Virus record (IMG/VR): IMGVR_UViG_3300014204_000110
DNA: 64,000 nt
Direction: 5' to 3' (one strand)
Origin: a virus
Taxonomy: Duplodnaviria > Caudoviricetes
The notes beneath the pieces were generated by a model. The model did not search any database and was not told the DNA's origin. It was given only the letters and a program-made list of their open reading frames with translations. The position numbers and the translations under genes were made by a program. Below, in pieces: positions 178 to 47,334 of the stretch (position 1 is the first letter of the stretch; every line of letters starts with the position of its first letter).

Positions 178-419
178 AAGTTAGTTTCTATATGTTCATG
201 ACATTGTTTACTTGCATTAAGTAATGACCATTTTAGAAGGTATTCTACAGTTATTTTACTTAGATCTAAGTTACCATCTTCTTTTTTTGCAATGTCTATT
301 GGTGTTTTACTAGATCTAGAAGCATTTTGTAAATCTTCTATAAGTTCAACTAGATTATCAAACATACGCTTATGAAGATCTAGATGACTCTCTTTCCAAA
401 GACCTTGTATAATTGACAT
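174..419 (-). CDS. hypothetical protein
   Basis: 81 aa ORF coupled to neighbours. Confidence 0.6.
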   Translation of the reverse strand: MSIIQGLWKESHLDLHKRMFDNLVELIEDLQNASRSSKTPIDIAKKEDGNLDLSKITVEYLLKWSLLNASKQCHEHIETNL

Positions 420-685
420 TATAACTCCAAATCTTTGTAACTAATTATTTTAACATCTCTTGCTTTAGCAACATTTATTTTAGTCATTCCAGGATCATTT
501 CCAACTATAAGATAATCTGTATAACTTCTAACTGTAGAATTATTTTTTACATAATATGTTTTATTTAAATATATTTCAAATTCTATTCTTGTATATCCTG
601 GAATAGTTCCTGTTACACAAATATTTTTATATTTAAGATCTATTTTTTGTTTTGGTTCTTGATCTCTACGTAAGTTTATACCCAT
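419..685 (-). CDS. stand-alone BRCT domain protein (NAD-ligase C-terminal type)
   Basis: ICVTGTIPGYTR...TDYLIVGNDPGMTKINVAKARDVKIIS matches LigA BRCT; N-terminus MGINLRRD. Confidence 0.8.
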   Translation of the reverse strand: MGINLRRDQEPKQKIDLKYKNICVTGTIPGYTRIEFEIYLNKTYYVKNNSTVRSYTDYLIVGNDPGMTKINVAKARDVKIISYKDLEL

Positions 686-1095
686 TAATTACCACAGCAT
701 GATTTAGGTTGTTTAAGTAATTCTTCAGTTTTAGTTTTATTAGTTTTAAAATTAACTATTAACTTATTTTTAAGTTCTTTAGCTATCTGACAATATTCAA
801 GTTCAAGTCTTAGTAAATTTTTATTTTCTTCAGAAAAGTCTATTGGACAAGATATATTTAATATATAATCTTGATCTTTAAGTAAAACTATTTCTTCAAA
901 TATATTTACGTTTATATTGTTAATTCTACAGAATGAAATTATATGACCGCCGACACATAGACCGAGTGATGATAATAATAACTCTAGAGGTGTATGAAAA
1001 TATAAATTACTTGATGTCTTTCCTCGTATAGGAACTTTTCCTACTGAAGTAATATTAATAATGTTATTTTTATCTCTCAGATTAACTGTTATCAT
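685..1095 (-). CDS. OsmC/Ohr-like protein
   Basis: TPLELLLSSLGLC ... YCQIAKEL two-Cys OsmC pattern; N-terminus MITVNLRD. Confidence 0.65.
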   Translation of the reverse strand: MITVNLRDKNNIINITSVGKVPIRGKTSSNLYFHTPLELLLSSLGLCVGGHIISFCRINNINVNIFEEIVLLKDQDYILNISCPIDFSEENKNLLRLELEYCQIAKELKNKLIVNFKTNKTKTEELLKQPKSCCGN

Positions 1096-1121
1096 TGTTC
1101 TATTTGTCCACTGCCATTTAA

Positions 1122-1343
1122 TTATAAATTATGACTTTTATCGATACTTGGATATAATTCTAACTTTCCGTAATAATTAATACTTAATATATTTCCAGCA
1201 TTATATTCATAAGTTCCATCTTTATTAACTATTGATAAAACTACACGATTATTATCTCTAAATAGTCTTAAGTATATTGGTGGTTTATTTTCTAATTGTA
1301 ATTCAACTATTTCTTTTTCATCATAAGCTCGTAGATTAAGCAT
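1122..1343 (-). CDS. hypothetical protein (MLNLR N-terminus)
   Basis: 73 aa ORF. Confidence 0.55.
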   Translation of the reverse strand: MLNLRAYDEKEIVELQLENKPPIYLRLFRDNNRVVLSIVNKDGTYEYNAGNILSINYYGKLELYPSIDKSHNL

Positions 1344-1346
1344 ATT

Positions 1347-2321
1347 TTATCCTATTTCTTTAATATCATTTATAGTTGGACCATAACCAAACCATGATAT
1401 TTTTGAGATGTTATTTAATCTAGAATAAAATTCATTACAATTATCTTTATTAAGATAATTAATAAAATTCATAAATACATTAGTTACACCATTCATTAAA
1501 CAAGATTCTTTATATTGTTCAATAGAAAAAGAAAATAATCTTCTTACTTTTTTACTAATAGTTGTTAATTCTGGTACTTGCTTAATATCATTCCAGGTTA
1601 TTTCATGTTGGTCTTGATAATATGGTCCTGAATAACCAATCATATTACCTATATTATCAAAATGATTAGCAACTCTAATTGGATAAGTACGCATACAAGC
1701 TATAATTTTATCGACCCATTGAATAGGAATTCCTGCATCAGCTAATCCTTGTTGTGGACTTGTATTACGGCTAGTACAATAAGGATAAAATCCATGATTT
1801 AGTGATAATGAATGTCCTTGTGGTATTGCTAATTGAATATGTTTACATGATTTTAACAATTCAAACCAATTTCTTGCACTAATTGTAAATTCTGGTAATA
1901 TTTTATTAGCAGTATTTATATTTTTAGGATCTCTATTTATTTTTTGAATAATAGAAGTACTAGTACCTCTCATAGTAGATCCTATTTGTATTAAATTCTT
2001 TTCTTTTTCTATATTATTTTCAGTTATTATTGTTGCATTTTCATGAATTAGAATTTTTGCATCTTTAGGAAGAAGTGCTTGCTCTTTCCAAAAATCAGTT
2101 ATATTAATGATTGATCCTGGTGATAATAAATGTAAACATGGTGCATTAGTAGCAAATGTTGTCCATTTATTACCATTTGAATCAAAACCTCCAGAATTTG
2201 GACCAAAATTACTTACAATTGTATCTGGATTATATTTATGAAAATAATATTCATTAAAAAGTCGTTTACCTTCACTACCATATTGTCCACCAAAAATTAT
2301 ATCTACCTTTGGATTATTCAT
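1347..2321 (-). CDS. purZ: PurZ-type adenylosuccinate synthetase homolog (divergent)
   Basis: GGQYGSEGK (Ser for the PurA Asp), ILIHENA, IGST, YPYCTSR, YPIRVAN, SGP.Y.DQ.EI, ELTT..K..RR.F.FS, NFINY are features of phage PurZ rather than PurA. Confidence 0.75.
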   Translation of the reverse strand: MNNPKVDIIFGGQYGSEGKRLFNEYYFHKYNPDTIVSNFGPNSGGFDSNGNKWTTFATNAPCLHLLSPGSIINITDFWKEQALLPKDAKILIHENATIITENNIEKEKNLIQIGSTMRGTSTSIIQKINRDPKNINTANKILPEFTISARNWFELLKSCKHIQLAIPQGHSLSLNHGFYPYCTSRNTSPQQGLADAGIPIQWVDKIIACMRTYPIRVANHFDNIGNMIGYSGPYYQDQHEITWNDIKQVPELTTISKKVRRLFSFSIEQYKESCLMNGVTNVFMNFINYLNKDNCNEFYSRLNNISKISWFGYGPTINDIKEIG

Positions 2322-2322
2322 A

Positions 2323-3816
2323 TTATCCTATATCATAATTTTCAATAGTTTTAACTAAATTATTTTCACCTTGTTCTACAACTGAAATATAATCAAGTAC
2401 TTTATCACTCCATCCAGCTATAAGATTGACGTTATTACCAATTACTTTTATACTTCCATGCCCAGCTAGATCTATTGAATGAATCCACATGTTTTTATTT
2501 TTAGTTTTGAGCTGAGATGCATATCTTTGAGTATCTGAAGTTCTATAATCATAAGAGCTATCATTATAACATTGCATATCTGAAAATATAATAACTCTAT
2601 CAATAGGTTCATTTAAACTGTTAAGTACTTTAAACGCTTCATGAAGATTAGTACTATGACCTACTCCAGAATGCTCTAGTTTAGAAATATTATCAAATAT
2701 ACTTGCTTTTGTTGAAAGATGTATAATTTTAGCAGTTTCTCCAAATGGAACAGCTATAGAGTTATCACAAAATTTAACTGCTGCTGATGCTAAAAGATTA
2801 CCAATTTGTCTCATTTGAACAATACTATCTTTTGAAATAGTACTATCCATACTACCACTTTCATCAGTTATAATAGCAGTAGTTCCAGATAATTTAGGAA
2901 GATTTTCAAATGAAATCAATAGTGCATCTTCAATAGTATCTAGAACTTTTGTACATCTAGTTTTACCAAGAGTTTCAACCATTTTATAAGCAGAGAAAAA
3001 TCTAAATGGAAGTTGTTTAGATTTACGTACTTCTTCTGGATTCTTAAGTATGTTGCATACTTTATCTAGATGAATGTCTGAAATATTATTTTCAAGCATA
3101 TTTTTAAGATTACGTAAAAGCATCATATATCCAGCTTTACTATCTATAATCTCTTCCCATACTTTTTTACTTTGACCTTTTTCTGAAAGTATTGTTTCTC
3201 TTGTTTTAGGAGTTTTAAGACGATCTTCTATAAGACGTTTCCAAAGATCAGCTTGTTCCTGATCTTTAGGTTTTGGTCGACATAAAAGTAATGCGTCTTT
3301 AAGCTTTACAGTGCTTTTAGAGCCTTTGTATCGTGAGAGGCTATATTCATCAAACTTTGGAAATACATCTGCTATACCTCTTCGTAAGCTTCTAGGAATA
3401 GGATTAACTTGTCTTTTACCTAAAGATAGATGATAAGCTAAGATATTAGTAATATCATCAACTCGTTCAATGATTTTACTGATCATTTTACGAACAATTC
3501 TATTACCTTTAGCACCTTTTGCTACTTCTGCGGCAAGTACATGAGATACACTACGCATATGAAATTCATTACGTGCGTAACAAGCAAGTCGTGCTACAAA
3601 TTCAGGATCTTCAGATATAACTCTACGTGCTACTGAAATAAGTTCTGAAGTATTATCTCCATAAAATTTAGGTTCATTAATGAAACTGGTGAGTACTTCT
3701 GTTACGAGTTTTTCTTTATCTTTAAGATCATAAGCGAGTCCACCAGCTTTATTTATTGTTTTTCTAGTAGTAATTGTTGATCTACCAGTACTAACTGCTT
3801 TTGTATTTGCTTTCAT
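2323..3816 (-). CDS. rsr: Ro60/Rsr TROVE-domain RNA-binding protein with C-terminal vWA
   Basis: TINKAGGLAY, EPKFY, YARNEFHMRS, FDEYSLSRY, LLRNLKNM, SKQLPFRFFSAY, DESGSM (MIDAS), IIFSDMQ, IAGWSDKV. Confidence 0.92.
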   Translation of the reverse strand: MKANTKAVSTGRSTITTRKTINKAGGLAYDLKDKEKLVTEVLTSFINEPKFYGDNTSELISVARRVISEDPEFVARLACYARNEFHMRSVSHVLAAEVAKGAKGNRIVRKMISKIIERVDDITNILAYHLSLGKRQVNPIPRSLRRGIADVFPKFDEYSLSRYKGSKSTVKLKDALLLCRPKPKDQEQADLWKRLIEDRLKTPKTRETILSEKGQSKKVWEEIIDSKAGYMMLLRNLKNMLENNISDIHLDKVCNILKNPEEVRKSKQLPFRFFSAYKMVETLGKTRCTKVLDTIEDALLISFENLPKLSGTTAIITDESGSMDSTISKDSIVQMRQIGNLLASAAVKFCDNSIAVPFGETAKIIHLSTKASIFDNISKLEHSGVGHSTNLHEAFKVLNSLNEPIDRVIIFSDMQCYNDSSYDYRTSDTQRYASQLKTKNKNMWIHSIDLAGHGSIKVIGNNVNLIAGWSDKVLDYISVVEQGENNLVKTIENYDIG

Positions 3817-8224: not shown

Positions 8225-9343
8225 CTATTCATATGTTCTTATTACAATTCCACGAGCATGACAAGGAATTAAATCTTTCGAAAAATATTGGAATCTTACT
8301 GTCAAAGGTTGACCAATAAGAGAATTAATATTATCTAACCATTCCTTTCTCTTACTACGACTACCTTTTGGTCTAACGTCAAACTCTTTACCTTCTTTAG
8401 TTTTACATCTAAATACAACGGTCCCAATATCATCACCGTCTGCACTTACACCACCAATAATTTCGAATTCATCCTCTAAGAAATCTTTTTTCTTGAGTAA
8501 ATCTATACTACGATGGTTAAATTTATAAAGTCCATGTTTATTTCTGATCATTGATCCTTCAAAACCAAGACTTGTAAATTGTTTATGATATTTTTCAATA
8601 TCTTCCATACATGTAACTTCATATGATGGAACTTCAACTAACTTTCCATATTTTCTAAATCCAAATTCATTTTTTTCTGTAGATTGGTTAAAAAACTCTT
8701 TAATAGTTTTATATCGATCGTCGTAGATTACTTCTTTTTTTGGAATATCAAATATCCAATATTCTAAATTTGGAGTATCTTTATTATATTTTTTACAAGC
8801 AGAAGTGATATCTTGTAATGGAAGACCGTGAAGATAAGCTTCACCATCTCCATTTTCTAATACTTTTAAAAGTTCTTTAGTATCTAGATGTAGATGTTCT
8901 AAAGCAGGATATTCTTTTCCTTTTTTAGATTTAAGTAGTATTTTATTATCTACTTCTTCTGAAGTTAATCTGTTACCATCAAGTTTTGGACTAATATATG
9001 CTGGAAGTACTATTTTATGAGCATATTTAGTTATATTTTGAGCTTTCATTGGTAATGGTACTGTGATATTTATATCTTCAATATCTTCTACATATCCTTC
9101 ATCAAGTTTTTTATTAAGTTTACTTTGAGCTTCATTAAGACCTTGTTGCCAAGGAGTGGTCTCATTACTTTTTCCAATATTGACAGATTTAATTTCTTTA
9201 GAAGATGTAGTTTGTTTACCATCTTGATATCCATGTGTAACTTCTAATGTTACGGTTTCTCCAGTTTTATTTACTTCACATTGCCATATTTTTGTCTTAT
9301 CATTAGAAGCTTTAGCATATATTGGACCAAATTGTTGTTTCAT
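8225..9343 (-). CDS. ATP-dependent DNA ligase
   Basis: SPKLDGNR (motif I), DGE, WIFD, FEGSMIR, LLKKK, OB domain; WGR-like N-terminus. Confidence 0.9.
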   Translation of the reverse strand: MKQQFGPIYAKASNDKTKIWQCEVNKTGETVTLEVTHGYQDGKQTTSSKEIKSVNIGKSNETTPWQQGLNEAQSKLNKKLDEGYVEDIEDINITVPLPMKAQNITKYAHKIVLPAYISPKLDGNRLTSEEVDNKILLKSKKGKEYPALEHLHLDTKELLKVLENGDGEAYLHGLPLQDITSACKKYNKDTPNLEYWIFDIPKKEVIYDDRYKTIKEFFNQSTEKNEFGFRKYGKLVEVPSYEVTCMEDIEKYHKQFTSLGFEGSMIRNKHGLYKFNHRSIDLLKKKDFLEDEFEIIGGVSADGDDIGTVVFRCKTKEGKEFDVRPKGSRSKRKEWLDNINSLIGQPLTVRFQYFSKDLIPCHARGIVIRTYE

Positions 9344-9351
9344 AATTATCC

Positions 9352-10011
9352 TTAATTAGTAAATAAACCTTTACTAAAACTTTCAAGTTTAATATCATCA
9401 TTTGATGTTGTTGATCGTGTACTCATATATCTTACTGAAGCAGTGTTAACATTATTCCACATATCTGTTGTTCCAGTAGAATCGCTAGAATATTTAAGTG
9501 AACTTCCTCCAGCTAAATTTAAAGTATATTTTACTACTGAAAGATCTTGATTAGCTCCGATGTAATTTATTGTCCATCGTTTTGTATCTAGACGTTCAGA
9601 GATCATTTCTGAAATTTGTTTACTGTTATATTCTACTGAACAGTTTTCTGCTCCATCACTTATGATTAAAATAACGTAAGTTGTAAAATCATTATCAATT
9701 ATGCTATTTTTCATTTCATTAAGTAATTTAGCAACACCGTCGTACATTGCTGTTGTACCATTAGGATTATAATCTTTATCTGTAAAATCAACGATGTTAT
9801 TTATAGGTGTAGCATTAAACACTGTAGAAATATTATCTCTACTTGAAAATTTAACAAGGGTAAGTGTGGTTTCAATGTCTGAAAACTTTTTATATTCTTG
9901 TATGTGTTCATTAAGTCCAGAAACCGTTTCTCGTCTGGAACTAGCCATACTACCACTTTCGTCTAGTGCAATGCCTATATGTACTATTTTTTTATCAGCT
10001 CTAAGATTCAT
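9352..10011 (-). CDS. vWA domain protein
   Basis: LDESGSM, PNGTTAMYD, IISDGAENCS, YIGAN; N-terminus MNLRAD. Confidence 0.88.
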   Translation of the reverse strand: MNLRADKKIVHIGIALDESGSMASSRRETVSGLNEHIQEYKKFSDIETTLTLVKFSSRDNISTVFNATPINNIVDFTDKDYNPNGTTAMYDGVAKLLNEMKNSIIDNDFTTYVILIISDGAENCSVEYNSKQISEMISERLDTKRWTINYIGANQDLSVVKYTLNLAGGSSLKYSSDSTGTTDMWNNVNTASVRYMSTRSTTSNDDIKLESFSKGLFTN

Positions 10012-10542
10012 TGTATGTCCTCCAATGTGTTTGTTAATTTATTTGTCATTTCTACTAATTTATTAGAATCATCTATTCTAAGATTAATAGTTTTTTTAAT
10101 GTTCATATATTTTTGAATATCATTTACTTGTTCTTTAATATCTTTAAGTACTTGTTGATTTGTTTGAACATATGAACTTATACAATTTCTAATTTGAGTA
10201 AGATATTCTATATTTATTTCTAATTGTTCAAATTTTCTTATTTTATTAGTTATTTCTTTTGAATAATTAACAGTATTATCTATATTATAACATCTATGAT
10301 CTAGCTCAATTATAACATCTATGATCTAGCTCATTAACATCTATTTTTAAACTTTGTATAGATTCTTGTATTTCTTTGTATTGTTCTTGATTCATATCTA
10401 GTTCTTTTAGTAATAAACTTTCTATGATTTCTGTACATATTGGACAAAATTCATCAGAATTATGTCTATCAAGGATACCTCTAAGTATTGTTTTATCATT
10501 TAGTGATATTCCTGGATGTGATGTTATAATATCTTTATTCAT
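10008..10542 (-). pseudogene. coiled-coil protein split by a 25-bp tandem duplication
   Basis: Removing one repeat copy joins ORF 10306-10542 in frame to an open stretch ending at TGA 10008-10010. Confidence 0.65.
10284..10333. repeat. 25-bp perfect tandem duplication
   Basis: attataacatctatgatctagctca x2. Confidence 0.95.
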
Positions 10543-11750: not shown

Positions 11751-12464
11751 CTAACCTTTCTGTTGAAACATTTTACGTTTAAATGCACTTCTGTGACATT
11801 CGCAAAATTGTGGATATACAGATTGTCTTGAGTCATAAGTAATTAAAAAAGTATTAGAACATCTATTATTTAATTTATTTAAAGCATGGCATCGTATTTT
11901 AAGGCTTTGACCATTATGCAATCTTTTTTTATATTTAATTGATAGTATGATATTTTTACCATCAGGATCTGATAAAACAGATCTTGGAATACTTTTATTA
12001 TATAATTGTCGAGCTTCAATACATCTGATATCATCACAATATTTTTTTGTACCAATACCCATAAAAGTATTTATACATCCTACAAACTTACATATTTTAA
12101 GTCTTTTTTGATTTTTTGTAGGCCTTATATGTATTGGTGGATATCCACGTAGATTTAATATTTTTCCAGATTTATTTCTGTATTTTTCGAGATATATATT
12201 ATCGATTTCAAATTCTCCTGATAAAAGTGCATTTATACGTTCAAGATGTTTATTACATACTTCATAACCTTGAATAGATATTCCATCATGCTTAAGTTTT
12301 CCAGTTATACAAAAATATGCTTGTGCTGGTTCATCACAAAACATACAAGTTTTACTTGTTATATCTAAACTATTTCCTCTTACAACTTGAACAACACATT
12401 CCATTTTGTTCCTCAAATATCTTTCCGTAAGTATCTTCCCAATATTTGCGATATTTTGCTGCAA
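11751..12464 (-). CDS. Cys-rich putative zinc-binding protein
   Basis: CMFC, C..H, CKFVGC, CDDIRC, C..C..FCECH. Confidence 0.6.
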   Translation of the reverse strand: MQQNIANIGKILTERYLRNKMECVVQVVRGNSLDITSKTCMFCDEPAQAYFCITGKLKHDGISIQGYEVCNKHLERINALLSGEFEIDNIYLEKYRNKSGKILNLRGYPPIHIRPTKNQKRLKICKFVGCINTFMGIGTKKYCDDIRCIEARQLYNKSIPRSVLSDPDGKNIILSIKYKKRLHNGQSLKIRCHALNKLNNRCSNTFLITYDSRQSVYPQFCECHRSAFKRKMFQQKG

Positions 12465-14814: not shown

Positions 14815-15258
14815 TTATATATCATTTGAAGTTAATAATCCACTACATAAGAGATCTACTAGACGCGAATTTAAGGCATCACGTTCTAATTTATAACAAT
14901 CATCACATAATGTTTGTATCCAATCAAGATCTTTTCTTAATTTCCCAGATTTTCCATCATTTTCACATAGTGTATAAGATAATTGTTCAAATTGATTAAG
15001 TTGCCAGAATATTTTATTAAATATATCTTCCCATTCTTCTTTGGATAAATTTTCTTTTAATTTATCATAATTTAGATTTATTCTTAATCCACCTAATTTT
15101 TCTTTTATTTGAAATATTTCGATAAGTTTTTTTGTATCAATATCTGATAAGAAAGATAAAGTTAGATATATTAAACTATTCCATCCAGAACCGCATTCAA
15201 ATTTAAAATTATCTAGAAACATATATTTGTATTTATCTATAATTTCTTTTTCTGTCAT
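14815..15258 (-). CDS. conserved phage hypothetical protein
   Basis: FECGSGW, QIKEKLGGLR, W..TLCDDC. Confidence 0.7.
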   Translation of the reverse strand: MTEKEIIDKYKYMFLDNFKFECGSGWNSLIYLTLSFLSDIDTKKLIEIFQIKEKLGGLRINLNYDKLKENLSKEEWEDIFNKIFWQLNQFEQLSYTLCENDGKSGKLRKDLDWIQTLCDDCYKLERDALNSRLVDLLCSGLLTSNDI

Positions 15259-15575
15259 TAATCTTTCCTTAAATTTATATTTTTATATTTTGATATTATA
15301 TGATTATTTAAAAAAACTATATGAGCTTCTCCTCTATTCCAATCTCTATAAGATTCACTTATTAGTTTATATGAATATTTTCCAGTTAAAGATTTAAGTA
15401 TATTATCATCTATTGATTCTAAATTTTTTATAGTTGCTGTTCTTTCAGAAAATCTATTTCCATCAAGTAATGATATTAATTTTAATTCAAAAAAATTTAT
15501 CTGAGATAACATATAATAATTATAAAATGTATCTATTTCAAAAATATTTCCTATTTTATACATATTATTTTCCAA
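15258..15575 (-). CDS. hypothetical protein
   Basis: 105 aa ORF ending in NINLRKD. Confidence 0.55.
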   Translation of the reverse strand: MENNMYKIGNIFEIDTFYNYYMLSQINFFELKLISLLDGNRFSERTATIKNLESIDDNILKSLTGKYSYKLISESYRDWNRGEAHIVFLNNHIISKYKNINLRKD

Positions 15576-16243: not shown

Positions 16244-16666
16244 CTAAATATTATATTCTGAGATTGCTGGAATTTTGGTATTTTTCATAAATGACATAGT
16301 AACTCCATTTGATACTGGTCTTGTAGATTGAACTTTTGCTTCAATAAATGTACATACTTTTACTGGACTTGAAAGTTGAAACATTTCAGCACTTTTTGCT
16401 ATTACACTATCAAATGAAGAACAAATAGATCTTGGAAGATATTCTTTAATTTCAAATGGTTTGAAATATTTAATATCAATTGTATTAAGAGCATCTGTTT
16501 TACGTTTAGATGAGTCTCTACCAGTTTTACGACAGAAGTTATCATTTAAATGTGTAATTGAAAATCCTACCAGAAGTCTGTCATCTGGAGTTTTTTTGAT
16601 ACAATAACTATGAGCCAATGTATCTTTATTATCTTCTCTTACATGAAAATACAGTTCATCTTTCAT
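16244..16666 (-). CDS. hypothetical protein
   Basis: 140 aa ORF, D.FCRKTGR motif, AAGGAG RBS. Confidence 0.65.
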   Translation of the reverse strand: MKDELYFHVREDNKDTLAHSYCIKKTPDDRLLVGFSITHLNDNFCRKTGRDSSKRKTDALNTIDIKYFKPFEIKEYLPRSICSSFDSVIAKSAEMFQLSSPVKVCTFIEAKVQSTRPVSNGVTMSFMKNTKIPAISEYNI

Positions 16667-17076
16667 TTTGTCTCCTTTTGAGTATTAGTTAATATGTTTA
16701 AATCTTGTGTACTTGCTGTTATAATACTAGAATTTATTAACTGCTTTAATCTAGCATGATTATATGTTCTATCTATTGCTTGTTTACTATCTTCTTTTTT
16801 AATTATATTATTATCAATAATAACATAGTTATATTTAATTATGTATATATTTCTAATTGTATCATTTATTTTAAATCCTAATGGAAGAATACAAGCTATA
16901 GCTATAAATAAACTTGCTACTCCAGATACTAACCATTTTGTAAGTTTATAATAATATAATTCTTCACCTTCAAGTTGTTTAGCTACTTTAAGTTTTTCAA
17001 GTTCAAGTATTTTATCTTCTGAAAGGTATTTATATGCATTTTTATCTTCTTTATTATGTCTAAGATTTAAGTTCAT
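16663..17076 (-). CDS. single-TM membrane protein (MNLNLR N-terminus)
   Basis: Hydrophobic WLVSGVASLFIAIACILPLGF. Confidence 0.6.
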   Translation of the reverse strand: MNLNLRHNKEDKNAYKYLSEDKILELEKLKVAKQLEGEELYYYKLTKWLVSGVASLFIAIACILPLGFKINDTIRNIYIIKYNYVIIDNNIIKKEDSKQAIDRTYNHARLKQLINSSIITASTQDLNILTNTQKETK

Positions 17077-20873: not shown

Positions 20874-21221
20874 TTATCCAATACTCCAATTTATAGTATT
20901 TTTAGCCCATGAAGGTTGTCTACATTTTATATATTTATTAGTCCATTTATACCAACAAACAATTCTAGATAATGGAACTATTCCTTTAGGAACTTGTTCA
21001 ACAACTATATATTTATAATATCCTTCTTCACTTATGTCCATACAATTAGATGTTATATGTTCTTGAGCTTCTTTTAATGTATTATACCATCCTAATAATC
21101 GTATATTTGAATTTATAAAATCTAAATGAATTTTGTTTTCTTTTTTAAATAATATTGGTCTTATTGCAGTAATGAAATATTTACTTATTTGGTAATATTC
21201 TTTTATTTCTTTTTCTGTCAT
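20874..21221 (-). CDS. hypothetical protein
   Basis: 115 aa; N..DI.E..Y.Y.VVE pattern common in phages. Confidence 0.6.
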   Translation of the reverse strand: MTEKEIKEYYQISKYFITAIRPILFKKENKIHLDFINSNIRLLGWYNTLKEAQEHITSNCMDISEEGYYKYIVVEQVPKGIVPLSRIVCWYKWTNKYIKCRQPSWAKNTINWSIG

Positions 21222-21768
21222 ATTTAGTTTTATCTTTGAAAGTTTTCTCAGTTTGTTTAGGTAATGGTATTCTAAATTTTTTAATCTTATTTTTCATAAT
21301 TGATTAGTAAAATCAGGTATATTTTTCCAACACCAAATAAAAAGACATTCATTAGGATATATTTGCATTAATTTATCCCAATTATATCCATGAGCTTTAT
21401 GTAAAAGTCTTATTAACATTGTTGTATAATTATCTCTATTTCCTGAAGATAATTCTATTTTATAATCTCTTATAAAATCATCTGAAACTTCAAAGTTATA
21501 TGTATGATTATCATAAATAATTGGTCCATCATAATTAAATAATTTATTGAAATATTTAAATGTTTGTTCTGTTATGGAAAATTTCATATATTAACTTTTC
21601 TTGGTGGAGAATCTTTATGTATTTCTTGTAAGTTGAATATACATTTATCTAATTTAATAGATTGTTGTAATTGTACAAGCTGTCTAAAATATTGATCTCT
21701 TGCATCTAGATCATCTAGACACTCTAATGGAATTTTAACTGTAAGTAGATAGTTCTTTTTAAGCATAT

Positions 21769-22587
21769 TTAATCCTTGAATAGATCTTCTCTTGAGATAT
21801 TATATGGATTGTTACGTTTATACTGTGAATTTAGATGTCTATCAATAACTTTTTGTTCCATTTCATTATTTTTTTGTATATCACCTCTTAGATAACTTTT
21901 TAAAATATTATCAACTTGTTCCCAGCTATCTGCTCCAATTTGTTCTAGACTTGTATTTGATACTCCAAGTCCATCTGTTGCATCTGCATTAACACAAGCC
22001 ATAAGAGCATTAGCTTGTTTTAGATGTCCACTGTTTGTAAGATCTTCTACGAGATATTTAGCAAGTTCATAAACTTCTGTTTTCCATAGACTTTGTATTG
22101 GTCCATAATCACCAACATCACCATGTAGGGTCCAGAAACCGAGCATCAGTTCAGAATAGTTATCAGTAGAAATAACCATTCCATTATTTAATCCTGCTAT
22201 TGCATATAAATTTATCATTCTTATTCTAGCTTTTACATTACCTTTGTAAATTGTATTTCTATTATCAACATTATTTCCAAATTCTGAACGTATATCATCG
22301 TATACACCATCACAAGTTTGATCAATATCATAGCAATGAAAATTTTTACAAAAATATAATCCGATATCATTTGCTCTATGATTTTCATTAGATTTATTAC
22401 TTTTAGTTGGAAGCGAAAGTCCAATCAATGGTAAATTAAGTTCATCCATTACTGGTTTAAGTAATGCTGCACATAGTGCACTATCAATTCCTCCAGATAT
22501 TCCAAGTACAACACTTTTAAGATTATTAGAAATCATATAATTCTTAAAATTAGATCTAATATTAGATATTACTTTAGAACAATTCAT
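21769..22587 (-). CDS. nadE: NH3-dependent NAD+ synthetase
   Basis: VLGISGGIDSAL, GNVKARIRM, STDNYSE..LGFWTLHGD, LWKTEVY. Confidence 0.92.
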   Translation of the reverse strand: MNCSKVISNIRSNFKNYMISNNLKSVVLGISGGIDSALCAALLKPVMDELNLPLIGLSLPTKSNKSNENHRANDIGLYFCKNFHCYDIDQTCDGVYDDIRSEFGNNVDNRNTIYKGNVKARIRMINLYAIAGLNNGMVISTDNYSELMLGFWTLHGDVGDYGPIQSLWKTEVYELAKYLVEDLTNSGHLKQANALMACVNADATDGLGVSNTSLEQIGADSWEQVDNILKSYLRGDIQKNNEMEQKVIDRHLNSQYKRNNPYNISREDLFKD

Positions 22588-22589
22588 GA

Positions 22590-23786
22590 TTAATCCTTAT
22601 AGTTAAAAGCACGTTTATATGTGGTTATATCTTCTTTAGAACCTAGAAATTTACCAGGATCATCACTAAGTTTAACTGTATTATACTTATAATCATCAAT
22701 ATAAAGTGATTGTAATTTAATTACAATATTAAGTGGACTTATCAAACCGTCATTGGATGTATCTGTCCCCCATCCAAATGAACAATCAAGATTAGGATAT
22801 TGATATCTAATATCTATAATTTTATGTGTGTTTAAATTATCAGAAAACATTATTTTACTTGAAGTTTTATTATATTTTCCTAATAATTTTACAAAATGAG
22901 CTATGCTTCCACTATCTTGTCTTAAATTTATACTTTCTTTTATATTTTTAAGAAACCATTCACTTCCATATGTATCTGTAAGAAAGTAGGTATCTGGAAA
23001 GATTTTAATGTAATCGCTAACTAATTGTTTTTGTGATTCTTCTAGATAATCCGCTTGTATAATATCAATTTCATACGATTCAATATTTCTATATTGATAA
23101 TCTTTATTAAATTGATATTGAGCTAAAGCAGCATATAACATATTCATTTCATGAGCAATTGTACCAATGGCTGGTATATTATATTTATTAGCTAGAGATA
23201 TATTAGATGTTCCAATAAGCTTATCTGGAATTTCTTTGAGACATTTCTCGATGAATATTTCTTGAAATTTAATATTAGAACGTCTACGAGTGCCAAATTC
23301 TACAAAATTAATATTTCTACAACTTTTAATTAGTTTAATTTTTTCATCAGTTTTTCTTATAAAAGCTTGTTCATGTTCATTACTAAATTTTCCCATAGTT
23401 TCTAAAGTATGATTTGAGAAAACTTCATTAACGGTTGACATTATAAGTGTCTCAAAAGGTATAAGATCTGATATTTTTCCTGTATAATATAAATTATTTA
23501 TATCTTGATTCATACTTGCAGCATTACCAATATCAAGTTTTGATAGATAATCTATAAAATCTAGATCATTAAAATGTTTATATAATAGCTGAAGTTCTGA
23601 ATATTTAAATTTTAAGTTAAATAATTTATTAACTTCTTCTCTTATTTTAACATCTAGAAATTTTAAATTAATATTACCACGATTGTATAATCTATAAGTA
23701 ACAATATGATTATCTAATTTCATTTTGTATAAAAAGTATAACATTTTATACTTATACATATCACAATCAAGTAGTGAAGTTATCAT
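22590..23786 (-). CDS. pncB: nicotinate phosphoribosyltransferase
   Basis: SLLDCDMYKYKM, EFGTRRR, GTSN, GTIAHE, TDTYG, RQDSG, FSDNL, SFGWGT, NIVIK, VKLSDDPGK. Confidence 0.9.
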   Translation of the reverse strand: MITSLLDCDMYKYKMLYFLYKMKLDNHIVTYRLYNRGNINLKFLDVKIREEVNKLFNLKFKYSELQLLYKHFNDLDFIDYLSKLDIGNAASMNQDINNLYYTGKISDLIPFETLIMSTVNEVFSNHTLETMGKFSNEHEQAFIRKTDEKIKLIKSCRNINFVEFGTRRRSNIKFQEIFIEKCLKEIPDKLIGTSNISLANKYNIPAIGTIAHEMNMLYAALAQYQFNKDYQYRNIESYEIDIIQADYLEESQKQLVSDYIKIFPDTYFLTDTYGSEWFLKNIKESINLRQDSGSIAHFVKLLGKYNKTSSKIMFSDNLNTHKIIDIRYQYPNLDCSFGWGTDTSNDGLISPLNIVIKLQSLYIDDYKYNTVKLSDDPGKFLGSKEDITTYKRAFNYKD

Positions 23787-29011: not shown

Positions 29012-30022
29012 CTATGCTACTTGTTTATGTTTGATTGAACTATAAAGTGAAGCTCCAATGAATCCTACACCAATAAGTCCAGTAATTACTTCTGGAACTT
29101 TAATAAAAGTGTCCATAAACATTATAATAGCAAGAGCACCAATTGCCCAATGCGCTCCATGTTCTAGATATATAAACTCTTTGAGAGTCTTTTTATCTAC
29201 AAGATATATTGTAAGACTTCTTACAAACATGGCACCGATACCAAGACCAATAGCTATAAGAACTATATCTTTACTAAGAGCAAATGCTCCAATAACACCA
29301 TCAAATGAGAAACTTGCATCAATGAGTTCTAGATATAAAAATAGAACAACACCAGCATGTTTAATAAGCTTTTCTTCACCTTTAAGTATAAATTCGCTAA
29401 GTTTATCTATAACTATAAATAAAGCTACTCCACTAATTGATGAAAAAGCTAGAATACTTTGTACATTTTTTGGAGATATATTTAATATTGTTACTAATAT
29501 TGTCATATATATTAATAAAGGCCAAGTTAAATTCCATCCATTTATTAATTTAATATAATGTTTTTCTCCAGGTAACCAGTGTGTTTCTTTTTCTTTATCA
29601 AATATAAAAGTAAGAAAAATCATAAGTAAGAAACTACCACCAAACATAGATATGAGATTATTACATGATTCTAGATGATGACTATAAGCCAACCCATCAA
29701 ATAAAGCTAACTTAACTGTTTCTAGTAAATTAATACCAGCAAATATACTTACAAGTACAATTGGAAATATAAGTCTCATTCCAAATACTGCTACAAGTAT
29801 TCCCCACGTAAGAAATCTACGTTGCCATATTTTAGGCATAAGTTCAAGTTTTGTTGCATTTATAACGGCGTTATCAAAACTAAGACTTACCTCAAGTACT
29901 CCAAGAAACAAAGCAAGTAAGCTATAAGATAATCCAGTCTGGAGATCTATACGAAGTCCCCATAAAAATGCTAAAATTACTCCAATTACTGTAATAATAA
30001 ATGACATTTTAAAGTACTTCAC
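29012..30022 (-). CDS. TerC-family (DUF475) integral membrane protein
   Basis: LEVSLSFDNAVINA, FLYLELIDASFSFDGVIGAFA, YLEHGAHWAIG. Confidence 0.92.
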   Translation of the reverse strand: MKYFKMSFIITVIGVILAFLWGLRIDLQTGLSYSLLALFLGVLEVSLSFDNAVINATKLELMPKIWQRRFLTWGILVAVFGMRLIFPIVLVSIFAGINLLETVKLALFDGLAYSHHLESCNNLISMFGGSFLLMIFLTFIFDKEKETHWLPGEKHYIKLINGWNLTWPLLIYMTILVTILNISPKNVQSILAFSSISGVALFIVIDKLSEFILKGEEKLIKHAGVVLFLYLELIDASFSFDGVIGAFALSKDIVLIAIGLGIGAMFVRSLTIYLVDKKTLKEFIYLEHGAHWAIGALAIIMFMDTFIKVPEVITGLIGVGFIGASLYSSIKHKQVA

Positions 30023-30730: not shown

Positions 30731-31138
30731 TTAGATACCAAGTGACTTGAGAGCAGCATCAAAAGCAGGATCAATTGAAATTGCTTTTGCACGTACTGCA
30801 ACAAGTACTGCACGTTCAGTAGCATCAACACCACCATCCTTCATAAGAAGGTCTGTAAGCCACTGTGCTTCAGTAGCATCGATAACTCCAGGCGAACCTG
30901 CATCGTTAAGCGTAGCGTCACATACTGCGTCTGACATGAGTGTTACGAATGAAGGATCAACGTTACCTGAACACGCATCGTTGATCTGAAACAATGCTTC
31001 AACTTCTTCTTTTGAAACTACGCTATCTGCATAGATTTCTGTACGAAGCTGTGTGACTTCATCTGCATCAACTTTACCATCTGCAATTACTGCCGCTACG
31101 AGATCTTTAAGAGACATGAAATACTCCTTAAGAGACAT
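30731..31138 (-). CDS. TerB-like tellurite-resistance domain protein
   Basis: ADGKVDADEV..ADSVVSKEE..DGGVDATE repeats. Confidence 0.75.
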   Translation of the reverse strand: MSLKEYFMSLKDLVAAVIADGKVDADEVTQLRTEIYADSVVSKEEVEALFQINDACSGNVDPSFVTLMSDAVCDATLNDAGSPGVIDATEAQWLTDLLMKDGGVDATERAVLVAVRAKAISIDPAFDAALKSLGI

Positions 31139-31288: not shown

Positions 31289-31855
31289 TTACTTTGTGAG
31301 AGCGTTAGCGCCAGGAATAGTTGTAACCAGTGTATCTAGAGACATGATTTTACCAACATTGATAAACTCTGCTCCAATTGCGCCATTCTTAATTGTACAA
31401 AGATGTGCTGCTACACCAGTTTCTGTACTATTAAGCTGACCCTGTACAAGACAACTTCCATCTTCTTTTACCATATTGATGCTTGCGTCGTAATTTGAAA
31501 AGCTTACGCTATTACCTTCACTTGCATCTGTGTAGTTAAGACAAACTATGTATAGTTCATCTACTGAAGCATCGATTTTATTAATGGTGATAAATTCTTC
31601 TTTATCACCATCTTTTAAATCAACACCAGCATCATCTTCCATATTAATAAATGGAAAAGAATTTAGATCTCCTTGGCTTCCTCCAAGTCTTTTTGTAAAA
31701 ATACTGAAATTACTTCCATCCTTGTTTTTTCCAAAAAGCATTAAGTCTAGGTCTACTTTAGCTTTCCACTGAAGTACAATTCGCATCTGCTTAATTGTAC
31801 CAACTGATGCACTTGCGTTCTTATCTTTAAGAACGATTTTTGGTTTAAGTTCCAC
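31289..31855 (-). CDS. TerD/TerA-family stress protein
   Basis: LQW...VDLDL, GDLNSFPFINMEDDAGV, EEFITI, FSNYDA. Confidence 0.75.
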   Translation of the reverse strand: MELKPKIVLKDKNASASVGTIKQMRIVLQWKAKVDLDLMLFGKNKDGSNFSIFTKRLGGSQGDLNSFPFINMEDDAGVDLKDGDKEEFITINKIDASVDELYIVCLNYTDASEGNSVSFSNYDASINMVKEDGSCLVQGQLNSTETGVAAHLCTIKNGAIGAEFINVGKIMSLDTLVTTIPGANALTK

Positions 31856-31904: not shown

Positions 31905-32603
31905 TTAAAGTATTCCAACTTGTTTAGCAGCATTCTGCCAGATATCGTATTCTTCAAGAAGAGCTTTATACAGATCTTCATCTGAAGTTTTATTGATATC
32001 TTTGATTCTCTGAAAATTAGCATTATCTATTTTACGACCTGACATTGTATCAAGCTGTTCTAGATAGCTCATTCCAGCCGTTCCAATACCAATAAATTTG
32101 AAGAAAATATTATATTTTGATATTTCCTTCATATATTTAGTTGTATCACTTCGATCACTGTTATCACCATCTGTTACAAAAATAACAAATGTTGGTATTT
32201 TTGATAGATTTTGTTCGACGTAATAGTCAAAAATCTTTGCTATAACAGGACAATATTCTGTACCATTCCATTCTGCTTTTGGAACAATATTTTTATTTAC
32301 GAAATCGACGATATTACCAAGACCGACATTTGAGCATGATTCACATCGTCCTGAAAATCTGAATGTTTCCATTTCACCATTATCATCGAATTTAAGTGCA
32401 AGTGGCATCATTCGTTCAACTGTTTTCTGAACAGTTCCATTTGAAAATTCATCTTGCATACTTCCAGAAACGTCAATCACAAATGCAACTCTTGCTTGAG
32501 TTACTGCAAGTGATTTTGTTTTAAGAACAGCTTCAAATGTCTTTTCCCGAAGTTTGATCCCATCAGTAACTTCAGTTTTCTTACCAAAATCAAATAGTCC
32601 CAT
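31905..32603 (-). CDS. Ter-associated vWA protein
   Basis: IDVSGSM, FDDNG, PTFVIFVTDG, FFKFIGIG, LEQLD...R.IDNANF. Confidence 0.88.
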   Translation of the reverse strand: MGLFDFGKKTEVTDGIKLREKTFEAVLKTKSLAVTQARVAFVIDVSGSMQDEFSNGTVQKTVERMMPLALKFDDNGEMETFRFSGRCESCSNVGLGNIVDFVNKNIVPKAEWNGTEYCPVIAKIFDYYVEQNLSKIPTFVIFVTDGDNSDRSDTTKYMKEISKYNIFFKFIGIGTAGMSYLEQLDTMSGRKIDNANFQRIKDINKTSDEDLYKALLEEYDIWQNAAKQVGIL

Positions 32604-36462: not shown

Positions 36463-36497
36463 AAAAACCTCCAAATAAAGAGTAATATAAAATGCTG

Positions 36498-36935
36498 TTA
36501 CAAACAATTTATAACAGCTGGAATTTTATCTGTAATCGAAAGAATTAAAGGACAATAACTTTCTCTACTTTTTGTATAACCACACATAAGTATCTCTGGA
36601 ACGTTTTTACATCCAACAACCAGAAGACTATGTGAGTTATTATTTTTAATAAATGCTACATACCCTTTAGATATATCAAACATATCTTTAAGATAAACTG
36701 TATTTTTGTTACTTACAAATCCAATGATTTTAGTAAGTAGTAATTTATCTTTAAATGACAGTAAAATGTCTTTTATACATGAAGGATCTTTTTGTAACAT
36801 AGACCAATATCTAGATATGTGGTCGTTTTGTCGATCAAATGTTATTGTATTTTTCCAAACGTTCTCACCATTCGGACATATATTTATTATTTTTTCTTTA
36901 CTACAAATTAACTTAGTTATTCCTCTGCGCGCCAT
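36498..36935 (-). CDS. hypothetical protein
   Basis: 145 aa ORF. Confidence 0.55.
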   Translation of the reverse strand: MARRGITKLICSKEKIINICPNGENVWKNTITFDRQNDHISRYWSMLQKDPSCIKDILLSFKDKLLLTKIIGFVSNKNTVYLKDMFDISKGYVAFIKNNNSHSLLVVGCKNVPEILMCGYTKSRESYCPLILSITDKIPAVINCL

Positions 36936-43517: not shown

Positions 43518-45260
43518 TTAATCCTTATCGAGATGCTCGGTTATAAGTTTAGCTGCTCTTGCTTCTCCACCTAAACGTCCATGTACTTTATATACCTTTC
43601 CGACATAATCATTCTTATTGTTTAACATATCTAGACATGTTTGTTTATCTCCCAAATTACCAGGGCCTAACTTATACATACGATTACTTTCAAGACTTTT
43701 AAACCATACTACTCCTGAGATGTTATCTTTTTCTGTAACTTTAAGATCGATGCTTTCAATCTTCCAATCATGTTCATCTCCCCATACTTTAACTTTATAA
43801 CCATCATTAATAGAAAGTCCTTTAGGAACTCCAACGAGACCTTCATGATCAGTTCTAAGTTTAGCTTTAGCCATTGGAACGATCTTCCAATAACGACTAT
43901 CAAGAACACTACACAAGGTAGACTGAAGATATCTGTTCTTGTGAAACTCCAAGTTTGTAGTTTCTTGTTGTTTAAATTTATCGAGCCTATAGATGTATAC
44001 TTCTGGAAAGATATCGGTACTCCTGACTTTATGTGAGTTGAGAACGCCTGCGACTTGGCTTGCAGATAGGAAAGACCAACAGATATTTTCGGCTCCTTTA
44101 ATATCCCACAGATAGTTAAGTATTCTACCAATCCTTGTATATCTGTAGAATACCAGTTCTGCCATACCTTGGCTTCTGATAGCTGTTGGTTTATCGATGA
44201 GTTCACTTGCTTTATAAGAATATTCAATTCTATGACTAGTGTTCTTGGACATTCTCGGGGAAAATATTTTGAAACTTTCATTTCTTTCAATTTTTCCAGA
44301 GCTTGTAAAATAGCAACTTGCTCCATCCATTTTTCTGGATATTGTTCCATGATCAACCTTTCTTAGAAACTCAGATTTAAAATCTTCTGGTTGAATCATT
44401 TTAAGATGAAGTCTATCTTTAAATGGTTCATCTCTTGGAATAAGTGTACCAACAATAAGTATTGGTGCAGATGTTTTACTTCCTTCATGTATTTTATACA
44501 CATATAAGCCTTGGTCTGCATTTATTAAAGGAGCGTATACATGAAGTGAAGATTTAACTTCTGGATGATAAAATTCACATTGATCTTTAAATATCACTTG
44601 TCTTGTAAATCCCTGTCCATACCCTTTAAGATTTGATCGCTCTGGATCATAACTCCAATCACAAGTAGCATTAGAAAGTGTATGATCATGATTCCAGACT
44701 ACTCGACTATTCTTAGCTATTTCATTTTTAAGATGATCCAGAAGTATCTGTTTACTATCCTCTGTTAGACGACCTTTAGAATTATATTTAAGATCATTTT
44801 CAAATGGTTTACCACTGACACGATAGACCATCGATAGATGTCCAATATGTAAGTCTATGTGTTTACCTGCTTTATGTGCGTCATGGTAAACTATTACTAG
44901 AGGTCTGATGATACGATTATTAATCAGGCTTTTATTTGTTGAAGTTATCCAGCTTCTTCTAGATGCTCCAAGACCATTTAAAAGCCAATCTTTTGGATAT
45001 TGTTTTGCTATTGAATGACCTTTATTGACATAACTTGAGGCTTTATTTATAAACATAAAATTACATATTTTAGAAGATATTGTATCTGAAAGTATATTTT
45101 CTATACTTTTATGTTTAATAAGATCTCGTGTTATGTTAATTATTTGAGGAATGTATCTAGAATACTTAAATTTACTGAGGCTCCATAAAGATGGATTTAC
45201 TGTTAAAAAGCCTTGTCTGCCTTTTATTAAGTTCTGTGTTATTTGCTGTAACATAATCAT
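43518..45260 (-). CDS. divergent ligase-like nucleotidyltransferase with LigD-phosphoesterase-like segment
   Basis: IVYHDAHKAGKHIDLHI; SRKMDG; FSPR; AE; HEGLVG; YKVK; C-terminal OB-like region. Confidence 0.55.
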   Translation of the reverse strand: MIMLQQITQNLIKGRQGFLTVNPSLWSLSKFKYSRYIPQIINITRDLIKHKSIENILSDTISSKICNFMFINKASSYVNKGHSIAKQYPKDWLLNGLGASRRSWITSTNKSLINNRIIRPLVIVYHDAHKAGKHIDLHIGHLSMVYRVSGKPFENDLKYNSKGRLTEDSKQILLDHLKNEIAKNSRVVWNHDHTLSNATCDWSYDPERSNLKGYGQGFTRQVIFKDQCEFYHPEVKSSLHVYAPLINADQGLYVYKIHEGSKTSAPILIVGTLIPRDEPFKDRLHLKMIQPEDFKSEFLRKVDHGTISRKMDGASCYFTSSGKIERNESFKIFSPRMSKNTSHRIEYSYKASELIDKPTAIRSQGMAELVFYRYTRIGRILNYLWDIKGAENICWSFLSASQVAGVLNSHKVRSTDIFPEVYIYRLDKFKQQETTNLEFHKNRYLQSTLCSVLDSRYWKIVPMAKAKLRTDHEGLVGVPKGLSINDGYKVKVWGDEHDWKIESIDLKVTEKDNISGVVWFKSLESNRMYKLGPGNLGDKQTCLDMLNNKNDYVGKVYKVHGRLGGEARAAKLITEHLDKD

Positions 45261-45343
45261 CCAATCGTTTATGACATATTGAACAATATTTAACGTTTTT
45301 TATTATATTTGGATCTGCATTATGATTACATTTTTCTTGTCGT

Positions 45344-45610
45344 TCAATTATATCTATAAGATCCATGCGTTCTCCATTGCATAATTGTTACAAGAAATGT
45401 TATAATTAGAACTGCTATTACTGGAATAACCATTGATGCTTCTATCCATAATGGAAGAGTTATCATAAATGGTACTTGTACAAGAAGTGTCGTAAGACCA
45501 ATTCCAGAAAGTGTTAAGATGATTACACTTTCAAAATTATTAAATAAATCTTTAAAAATATCAACTATTTTGGATATAACTTGTTTAAATAATCTTTTAA
45601 TAAAGTTCAT
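45344..45610 (-). CDS. two-TM membrane protein
   Basis: Hydrophobic segments. Confidence 0.6.
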   Translation of the reverse strand: MNFIKRLFKQVISKIVDIFKDLFNNFESVIILTLSGIGLTTLLVQVPFMITLPLWIEASMVIPVIAVLIITFLVTIMQWRTHGSYRYN

Positions 45611-47334
45611 GATATAATAATCCTATTATTAGATGGAACACTTTCAAATGGAAGTGATGGCTCATCAAAACGTTTGTTTTTACGTCTATATTCTCGATCT
45701 TTTTTGATTTTATCTTTAAGATTAAAATCTGAATATTTATCCATTTCATTAAGATGATATGAAATTATTTTATTGATATTACTTTGAGTAGATGGAGAAA
45801 TCATTCTTGATGTCCTTTAGTTAAAGATTTTGCAACTTTACGTGATTGATCTTCGGAATAAGCTTCTAGAATTTCTTGTTCTTTTTGATCATGAGCTTGT
45901 TTAATTCTTAAAGGTGCTGATGCTAAAATAGCAATAACTTGTTTAATTTCAGTAATATGATTATCAATTTCATTCTTAAGTTTAGGTTTGACTACTTTTT
46001 TCATATCTTTAAGAGCTGACCAAAGACCTTTAAGTTCACTAATTGTATATTCAAACATTTAAAATCCTTTAATAGATGGAGTATTAAGTATGAAAAAGAT
46101 AAGATTTATTGCTGCTAAGATATATAAGTATTTCATAGTTATATTTCTATAAAATCATTAGGAAGGTTTAGTTTAAAATAATCATTATAACCTTTAATAT
46201 ATCCATCCATATATGCATTTTGATTTTCTTCACATACTAACCCTAATATACTAAAAGCTTGATCGTGTGTTAATCCTGTAGATATAAGATTTTGTACAAG
46301 TTTTTTCTGATCCATATTATTTCTTTCTGTTAATTTTACGACTTTGTTTTTGTTGTTTAACTTTATCTTTTTTAATTTTATAAGGTTTCTTTCTATTTGT
46401 ATTTTGATGTAAATGTGGAAATGCTTTTGTTTGATATTCAGATCTTGGATGTTTAATTGGATCAGTCCATCCTCCAGATATGTAATCAAATGGTGTATAA
46501 ATCATATAATCCTTTCAGTATTCATTTAACATAAGTTCAATAGCTTTATGATCATAATCTTTTGGTTTAAGATTTAATGATATACTTTCTCCATAACAAG
46601 ATACTTCATATTGTGAATTAGTATATCTAATTGCACAAAAACCTGCTGAAGTGATATTAAAATGTTTAAATTCAGAATGTTTTTGACTTGTTGAAAATAA
46701 GATTGGTTGAGTATCATTAACTACTACATATTTCATTTCTTTAGTAATATATTCTCCTTTTCTTTGCAAACTTTCTTTTTTAAAAGAAAAGTTTCTTATG
46801 ATTAGAACGTTTAAAATAAAGATAAATAACAAGTACCATAAACTACTTCATTTGTTTCTATTTCAATTTCAGTTATACAAACCATTAATAAAGGAATCTG
46901 TCCATATGTATGATGTAATGTATTACGAAAAGATATATCAAGTTTATATTTAATAAAATTATTATTAAATATTATTCTTCTAATATCTTTTGGACGTTTA
47001 AATCGAGTTACACAATCCCATACAAAATATACTATATGTTTATATGTGTGACATATTAAAATAAGTATATTAAGTATTAATCCAATTAATACCAATGATA
47101 GTTATATTTTCTTAATCTTGTAGTAATACATTCATATAATGAAAGCATACTTTTATTTATAGACATATATCCTCCTGTTAGTTAAATATCATTGATTAGT
47201 ATTAATTATACTATATATTGTATTATATTACTATTATATACTACACATAGTATTTAATACCATTAATTTGTACCTGGCAAATCTAAAAATTTCATATTTT
47301 CATTGATTTCTCCCGCAATGGTAAAATTGTATAA

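Follow-up and report, generated by a model that had tools for sequence, protein, structure and literature searches.

A short N-terminal Phi-Asn-Leu-Arg tag shared by unrelated proteins in one clade of uncultured large phages

Why should proteins that have nothing else in common begin with the same few amino acids? The question is raised by IMG/VR record IMGVR_UViG_3300014204_000110, which belongs to an uncultured phage of ~229 kb. We analyzed a 64,000-nucleotide stretch of this record (the window), which is AT-rich (27.6% GC) and densely coding. About a dozen otherwise unrelated proteins encoded there, including proteins of known folds (BRCT, OsmC-like and vWA), start with a common tag, the core of which is the four to six residues Phi-N-L-R-(x)-D (hydrophobic-Asn-Leu-Arg-x-Asp), placed at the extreme N terminus, 0 to 4 residues past the Met. 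Starts of the form M-x(0-4)-[MILV][NHS]LR occur in 10 to 13 window open reading frames (ORFs), compared with 0.18 expected. An earlier, sequence-only reading had quoted several of these N-terminal strings, all of which are present in the sequence where it placed them, and had proposed that the tag docks client proteins on a common scaffold, perhaps the complex encoded by tellurite-resistance-type (Ter) genes of the phage. The tagged genes of the window are as follows.

419 to 685, minus strand: BRCT-only protein, 88 amino acids (aa), start MGINLRRD, core codons at 662 to 679.
685 to 1095, minus strand: OsmC-like protein, 136 aa, start MITVNLRD, core codons at 1072 to 1086.
1122 to 1343, minus strand: singleton protein with no family assignment, 73 aa, start MLNLRAYD.
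9352 to 10011, minus strand: vWA protein, 219 aa, start MNLRAD.
10008 to 10106, minus strand: 32-aa ORF of uncertain status, tag start MNIKKTINLRID.
16663 to 17076, minus strand: single-pass membrane protein, a singleton, 137 aa, start MNLNLRH.
54768 to 56415, plus strand: tandem array of six small tagged genes with starts of the form M(x)I[NHS]LRD.
62909 to 63574, plus strand: clade-core protein, 221 aa, encoded after the endolysin gene, start MSEINLRN.

To ask how often such starts arise by chance, we took as the gene set the 126 nonoverlapping ORFs called in the window and counted a gene as tagged if [MILV][NHS]LR started within its first 8 residues. Ten of the 126 genes were tagged, whereas amino acid composition and the internal rate of the motif each predicted 0.18 (Poisson P of ~1e-14). 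Shuffling of the pooled N-terminal residues gave a mean of 0.24 motif starts and a maximum of 4. As a further control, we replaced Arg with Lys in the pattern and found that Phi-[NHS]-L-K starts a single gene, compared with 10 for Phi-[NHS]-L-R, even though Lys is three times commoner than Arg. The sequence-only reading had named the composition bias of an AT-rich genome as what would refute it; because the Lys version is not enriched despite the greater abundance of Lys, that explanation fails.

We then looked for the tag in relatives of the phage. Related contigs (25 to 36% GC) were found by synteny around the OsmC-like gene, and four whole relative genomes (G001 to G004) and an outgroup (G007) were obtained from IMG/VR; G003 is 64% complete, and the other three relatives are at least 95% complete. 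A megablast search with 12 kb against cultured phages gave no match. Each of the four relatives carries 7 to 11 tagged genes, or ~3 to 7% of its called genes, compared with ~10% in the window; the outgroup has three matches, which is at noise level. Most tagged genes cluster as singletons, and many of them lie in small arrays. In six orthologue families, N-L-R is kept by the tagged members at 30 to 54% overall identity, while the offset from the Met (0 to 4 residues) and the length of the linker both vary. Besides the BRCT protein, these families include the vWA protein, a core protein of 217 to 221 aa, a 339-aa PD-(D/E)XK nuclease and a 150-aa protein encoded just outside the window (locus L005, 11473-11925; MNLRKD). 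Conservation within families has its exceptions, in that the OsmC-like orthologue of G002 reads ISIKD and the nuclease of G003 is untagged. Other tagged carriers are a GP88-like protein encoded beside the polymerase and, in G003, RecA. The tag (MNLRNG) also precedes a ribosomal L7/L12 C-terminal domain in a 152-aa protein encoded at locus L001 (2141-2599). The tag is lineage specific, is independent of the protein body and is found in one clade of uncultured ~150- to 230-kb phages, in which it is carried by at least 10 unrelated proteins per genome. A literature search on the motif found no description of it.

The vWA protein shows where the tag stops. Its Pfam match is weak, but the DxSGS MIDAS motif and 11,606 homologues at an E value of ≤0.001 bear out its assignment. 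Strand 1 and the MIDAS motif (DESGSM) follow immediately on MNLRAD, and the gene lies upstream of that for an ATP-dependent DNA ligase (8225-9343). In an exhaustive search, the six closest representatives (38 to 54% identity) start with MN[LMV]R, whereas homologues beyond an E value of ~1e-37 have unrelated starts that are mostly Lys rich and variable in length. Tag-like starts also occur in representatives P0041 (MKLRNKK) and P0086 (MNLRKKK), and the more distant tagged representatives P0022 and P0024 are on contigs of 2 to 4 kb, which are too short to reveal what other genes accompany the tag. Because the distant homologues have unrelated starts, we conclude that the tag is a lineage-specific addition to known domains, and the idea that such domains normally lack it holds for the vWA homologues outside the lineage. 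The 32-aa ORF (MNIKKTINLRIDDSNKLV...) overlaps the vWA start (ATGA) and has a strand-plus-helix pattern like that of ribbon-helix-helix (RHH) proteins. In G002 and G004, a tagged gene precedes the vWA gene, and we considered the 32-aa ORF as a possible relic of it; we rejected this for want of any detectable similarity.

The BRCT protein shows the tag on a domain of known structure. An AF2 model (pLDDT of 82) places the BRCT fold at residues 20 to 88 and leaves residues 1 to 19, including the tag, as an unstructured extension. The best PDB matches of the model (E value of 6e-6) are the BRCT domain of RFC1 and those of ligases, including a phage heterodimeric ligase, so the fold bears out the domain label. 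A word search with the protein returned the query itself as the sole match, and its orthologues were located through synteny. They are 31 to 42% identical to the window protein and differ in the length of the linker after the tag, yet L-R is kept in six of them and M-x-Phi-N-L-R-R is invariant in the five that make up alignment A2. In the G002 orthologue (36484-36801), ATA replaces the ATG start and the tag is in frame, reading GLNLRTG; the ATA is either a rare start codon or a sequencing error.

In the OsmC-like protein, by comparison, the motif coincides with a predicted, low-confidence first beta-strand. Its own Pfam match is weak; several homologues carry PF02566 and the body of the model is confident, which makes the OsmC label probable. 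Across 18 homologues, R7 never changes, and the Asn position is occupied by N, Y, G, H, S, Q or I. All homologues in alignment A1 also share a conserved C-terminal Cys-Cys-Gly tail (xCCGG/N), preceded by a variable linker. Of the remaining tagged window proteins, the one encoded at 1122-1343 has no homologue in loci L001 to L004 or in G001 to G004 and G007. The protein encoded at 16663-17076 has one hydrophobic segment (residues 45 to 63), as expected from its label as a membrane protein, and bears the tag on its 44-residue N-terminal part. The same label had been given to the 62909-63574 product and is wrong, since hydropathy reveals no membrane segment; N-L-R is kept in five of five orthologues of this protein, 0 to 4 residues past the Met.

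One could argue from the overlap of the OsmC-like motif with a predicted strand that the tag arose by chance, from AT-rich composition or as a first beta-strand of the ordinary kind. The same could be argued from a G001 match to the search pattern, MSLRVISH, which is not kept in its orthologues (MDLKVINH and MALKVISH) and therefore looks like a chance match. Against this explanation stand not only the P value and the Lys control but also the persistence of the tag over 25% to 36% GC and its disorder in the BRCT model, and we regard it as virtually impossible.

Is the conserved entity the peptide or the nucleic acid that encodes it? We pooled the codons of 49 tagged genes from the window and G001 to G004. 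Tag Arg codons (AGA, 38; CGN, 8; AGG, 3) and tag Leu codons (TTA, 23; CTN, 20; TTG, 2) both match background usage, and the residue after the tag Arg is variable (K, D, N, R, T and others). Selection keeps the tag at the amino acid level, and the bases are no more constrained than the amino acids require, in agreement with the argument for a protein-level signal that had been made from codon variety. The alternative is an RNA- or translation-level signal just past the start codon, of a Shine-Dalgarno (SD)-like or early-elongation kind, with no reader of the peptide. The commonest tag DNA, AAT TTA AGA GAT, is indeed one base off the ribosome-binding site (RBS) context of the phage (TTAAGGAGA), and the C-terminal look-alikes described below are truly RBS footprints. 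The N-terminal tags behave otherwise: with their Arg and Leu codons at background, they include CGN in 8 of 49 cases and xGG in 5 of 49, compared with a 10% background; AAGAG occurs in few real RBSs (2 of 126); the motif is not followed by a Met or start codon; and orthologues with invariant amino acids differ in their codons. A signal in the RNA is therefore very unlikely.

The sequence-only reading had also counted copies at C termini and inside proteins. C-terminal Phi-N-L-R is in excess in G001, G002 and G004 (6 to 7 copies compared with ~1 expected); the 2 copies in G003, compared with 0.6 expected, are not a clear excess, and the single copy in the outgroup is as expected by chance. Across the window and the four relatives, 11 of 23 C-terminal copies sit 5 to 13 nucleotides before the next ATG. 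Eight of these 11 use AGG or CGG for the Arg, compared with a 10% background (P of ~1e-6), and in such copies TTA AGG AGA is the SD sequence AAGGAG read in frame. The window copy, KNINLRKD, is of the same kind: its DNA (AAT TTA AGG AAA GAT TAA TG) supplies the SD sequence and spacer of the gene at 14815-15258, with GG at -10/-9, so that it is an RBS read in frame and not a tag. C-terminal copies on a 984-aa and a 217-aa protein of the relatives are not kept in orthologues and hence are due to chance or to an RBS. A practical warning follows, that C-terminal look-alikes of the tag can be in-frame RBSs.

Internal copies in the window are at chance level (3 compared with 2.2 expected). The copy in nicotinate phosphoribosyltransferase is not kept in the single orthologue found, that of G004, which reads YGLRQDSGS. 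The gene for this enzyme and that for NAD synthase, a pair for NAD salvage, lie at 21769-23786 on the minus strand, and G004 is the only relative that shares them. Another internal copy, KILNLRG, fared better, being kept in the orthologues of G001 and G004. It and the C-terminal footprint are placed as follows.

11751 to 12404, minus strand: Cys-rich 217-aa protein with internal KILNLRG at residues ~81 to 87, conserved in orthologues.
15258 to 15280, minus strand: C-terminal NINLRKD and stop codon of ORF 15258-15563, an SD sequence read in frame, an RBS footprint and not a tag.

The 11751-12404 gene is a single ORF in the window, G001 and G004, with ILNLRG conserved. Its G002 counterpart (21155-21810) is two ORFs in different frames, broken at Phi-N-L-R, through fission or fusion or through a frameshift. 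A further copy is found in a Cdc48-like AAA protein. In four of five genomes, a Lys-rich linker in its C-terminal tail leads to K-Phi-N-Phi-R, which is encoded by varied codons; Asn is replaced with Lys in the tail of G004, as is Arg in that of G003. The Cdc48-like tail and the 11751-12404 internal copy are the two non-N-terminal copies that look genuine.

If the tag is a peptide signal, what reads it? The scaffold suggested at the outset was the Ter complex, with the tag mimicking the first strand of TerD. Ter operons are known accessory modules of jumbo phages (PMC7824862), and the window does encode a Ter-like module, composed of TerC/DUF475 (29012-30007), a weak TerB-like protein (30731-31138) and a vWA-TerF-like protein (31905-32603). 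A further ORF (31289-31786), which starts MRIVLQWK, is TerD-like by eye and has neither Pfam nor PDB support. None of the Ter-module proteins of the window is tagged. When we searched G001 to G004, tblastn with the Ter-like module found nothing and the TerD profile (PF02342) gave no match. Because these genomes lack the module and keep 7 to 11 tags, including the same tagged orthologues, a Ter scaffold cannot be the reader. The supposed likeness to the TerD strand, I-(S/N)-L-x-K, does not hold either, since the tag requires Arg, and the form with Lys, as is typical of TerD strands, shows no enrichment. Docking on Ter is thus extremely improbable; of the original proposal, the notion of a docking label stands as an inference, and the phyletic pattern removes the Ter complex from it.

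We favor the reading that this short linear peptide motif is a label for docking or delivery, by which a varied set of clients is recruited to a single partner conserved in the clade, and we give it a probability of about 0.55. The clients to be docked would be DNA-end and repair proteins, the vWA, OsmC-like and membrane proteins, and many fast-evolving small proteins. Because the Met offset varies, recognition does not depend on a free amino group at a set distance. As the most likely partner we would name, tentatively, the phage's own AAA+ proteostasis set, made up of a ClpC-like Hsp100 protein, ClpP and a Cdc48-like AAA protein. With such a partner, the tag would set the time at which accessory proteins are unfolded or removed, and the main contact would be made by the Arg, which is invariant and never replaced with Lys. 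The ClpC-like gene lies outside the window.

Starting ~2.5 kb before the window start (gene start in L005 13118-13621): ClpC-like gene, full length at L001 13526-15652 and L002 14289-16355.

The closest PDB entries to the ClpC-like protein are ClpC, ClpE and ClpB. Its D1 domain is intact, and it has an invariant MGF loop for docking ClpP. The N-domain is clade specific, with no Clp_N match, and Walker B of D2 reads FRGI, not FDEI. More distant phage Hsp100 homologues are without this N-domain, and their loci are without the tag. Matches to the ClpP family (PF00574) are present in G001, G002 and G004. In G002, a 201-aa ClpP-family gene and a GroES-like start (MNFKPLNDRVLISVVEAP, judged by eye) lie at 100228-102522, among sugar-enzyme-like genes at the end of a plus-strand block and outside the virion module. 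The third candidate, a Cdc48/VAT-like single-AAA ATPase, belongs to the clade core; in G002 (44647-47466), it has 939 aa, compared with ~580 to 600 aa elsewhere. At locus L003 (19638 onward), this ATPase contains intein-splicing and LAGLIDADG domains. We also considered whether the 118- to 120-aa gene coupled upstream of the ClpC-like gene encodes a ClpS-like adaptor. It has no Pfam match, and its Atlas look-alikes have flavodoxin-like or nucleoside 2-deoxyribosyltransferase folds, not that of ClpS, so we dropped this candidate.

Several observations weigh against the AAA+ set as partner. Since one clade carries both the tag and the AAA+ genes, that they occur together is a lineage-level pattern and no independent evidence. 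Some clients, such as the PD-(D/E)XK nuclease, the GP88-like protein and the BRCT protein, belong to core DNA metabolism and have no obvious need of timed destruction, and the conserved internal copy (11751-12404) would be needless for a terminal degron. The D2 domain of the ClpC-like protein has lost the Asp-Glu of Walker B, which makes its power as an unfoldase uncertain. A McsB-type arginine kinase (PF00217), which a phospho-arginine route would require, had no match in G001 to G004, though the host might supply such an enzyme, and G003 (64% complete) had no ClpP match, yet has 11 tags. Of no weight in either direction is the score of 0.00 from a prediction, made without control runs, of a complex between the ClpC-like N-domain (alignment A4) and the BRCT protein (alignment A2). 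A client-addressing system owned by the clade, in which the tag marks proteins for a phage AAA+ machine (the ClpC-like protein with ClpP, the Cdc48-like protein or both), is doubtful. If it were true, it would make AAA+ client addressing a virus-owned, sequence-coded pathway of protein turnover or delivery.

How does the tag compare with terminal peptides already known to be read by such machines? Clp/Hsp100 proteins recognize ClpX N-motifs and, through ClpS, N-degrons; the N-domain of ClpV binds an N-terminal peptide of VipB, and ClpC recognizes phospho-arginine. The tag resembles these signals in being short, terminal and unstructured and in containing a basic residue, and the phage has both a ClpC-like unfoldase with a loop for ClpP and ClpP itself. 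It differs in that it fits no published degron consensus, that no phage arginine kinase was found in the four relatives and that D2 of the unfoldase is without the Walker B acids. ClpP or ClpS has been described in jumbo phages (PMC7824862).

A second precedent is the capsid targeting sequence (CTS) carried by the T4 internal proteins IPI to IPIII and Alt (reviewed in PMC3012670 and PMC9958956). Like the CTS, the tag is a short N-terminal peptide common to unrelated phage proteins, many of them encoded in polymorphic small-gene arrays; it could likewise load proteins into the prohead for injection with the DNA. The strictly N-terminal position on unrelated bodies and the many small, fast-evolving singleton carriers in tandem arrays, which recall the polymorphic internal-protein locus of T4, speak for this alternative. 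The sequences of the two peptides are unrelated, however, and no conserved cleavage motif follows the phage tag. Tagged genes all lie outside the structural block (103 to 188 kb in G002), amid genes for DNA metabolism, and their products include replication and repair enzymes (the nuclease and, in G003, RecA) and a membrane protein. Nor do the conserved internal copy and the copy on the AAA tail fit a CTS. The T4-type prohead protease (PF03420) had no match, a result of little weight since the search control was silent too. On balance, we give delivery into the capsid an outside chance.

The DNA-handling carriers suggest yet another partner, a hub for replication or repair, such as a clamp, SSB or a polymerase-like platform, to which the tag would dock as clamp-binding peptides do. 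An RFC1/ligase-type BRCT protein, a vWA protein encoded beside a ligase, the PD-(D/E)XK nuclease, the GP88-like protein and RecA in G003 would all suit such a hub, and the internal and AAA-tail copies would be in keeping with clamp-type motifs, which can occupy either terminus or an internal position. Other carriers are unrelated to DNA, among them the OsmC-like protein, the L12-domain protein of L001, the membrane protein and the products of the small arrays, and no hub was identified, although no search aimed at clamps was made. To our knowledge, the tag is unlike the clamp-binding consensus QL[SD]LF or the PIP box. We rate this alternative as improbable.

A likeness in sequence is found in a different setting. 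The N-terminal strand of the Arc RHH repressor reads Q-F-N-L-R-W-P, which contains a core identical to Phi-N-L-R, and the 32-aa ORF at 10008-10106 continues with D-D-x-x-x-L-V-E, which is helix-like. The tagged bodies (BRCT, vWA, OsmC-like and others) are without RHH helices, unlike those repressors, and the 32-aa ORF alone continues in a helix-like manner.

Some neighbors of the tagged genes deserve mention in their own right. Encoded at 2323-3816 on the minus strand is a TROVE (Ro60-like) protein, the C-terminal part of which is vWA-like; together with the vWA/ligase pair (8225-10011, minus strand) and the BRCT-only protein, it resembles a set for handling DNA or RNA ends. A 324-aa PurA-like protein (1347-2321, minus strand) is matched by just the latter half of the adenylosuccinate synthetase model and could be a PurZ-type or degenerate enzyme. 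G001 to G004 lack it, and probing IMG/VR with it yielded no relatives.

Very few systems are documented in which unrelated phage proteins carry a common address peptide, the T4 CTS being the classic example. In the present clade, selection at the protein level maintains a different and shorter motif throughout, and its presence on proteins of known fold makes it experimentally tractable. If its reader is the phage AAA+/Clp set, the tag would be a virus-encoded code for selecting substrates for proteolysis or remodeling; if its reader is the prohead, the tag would offer a handle for loading cargo into large phage capsids.

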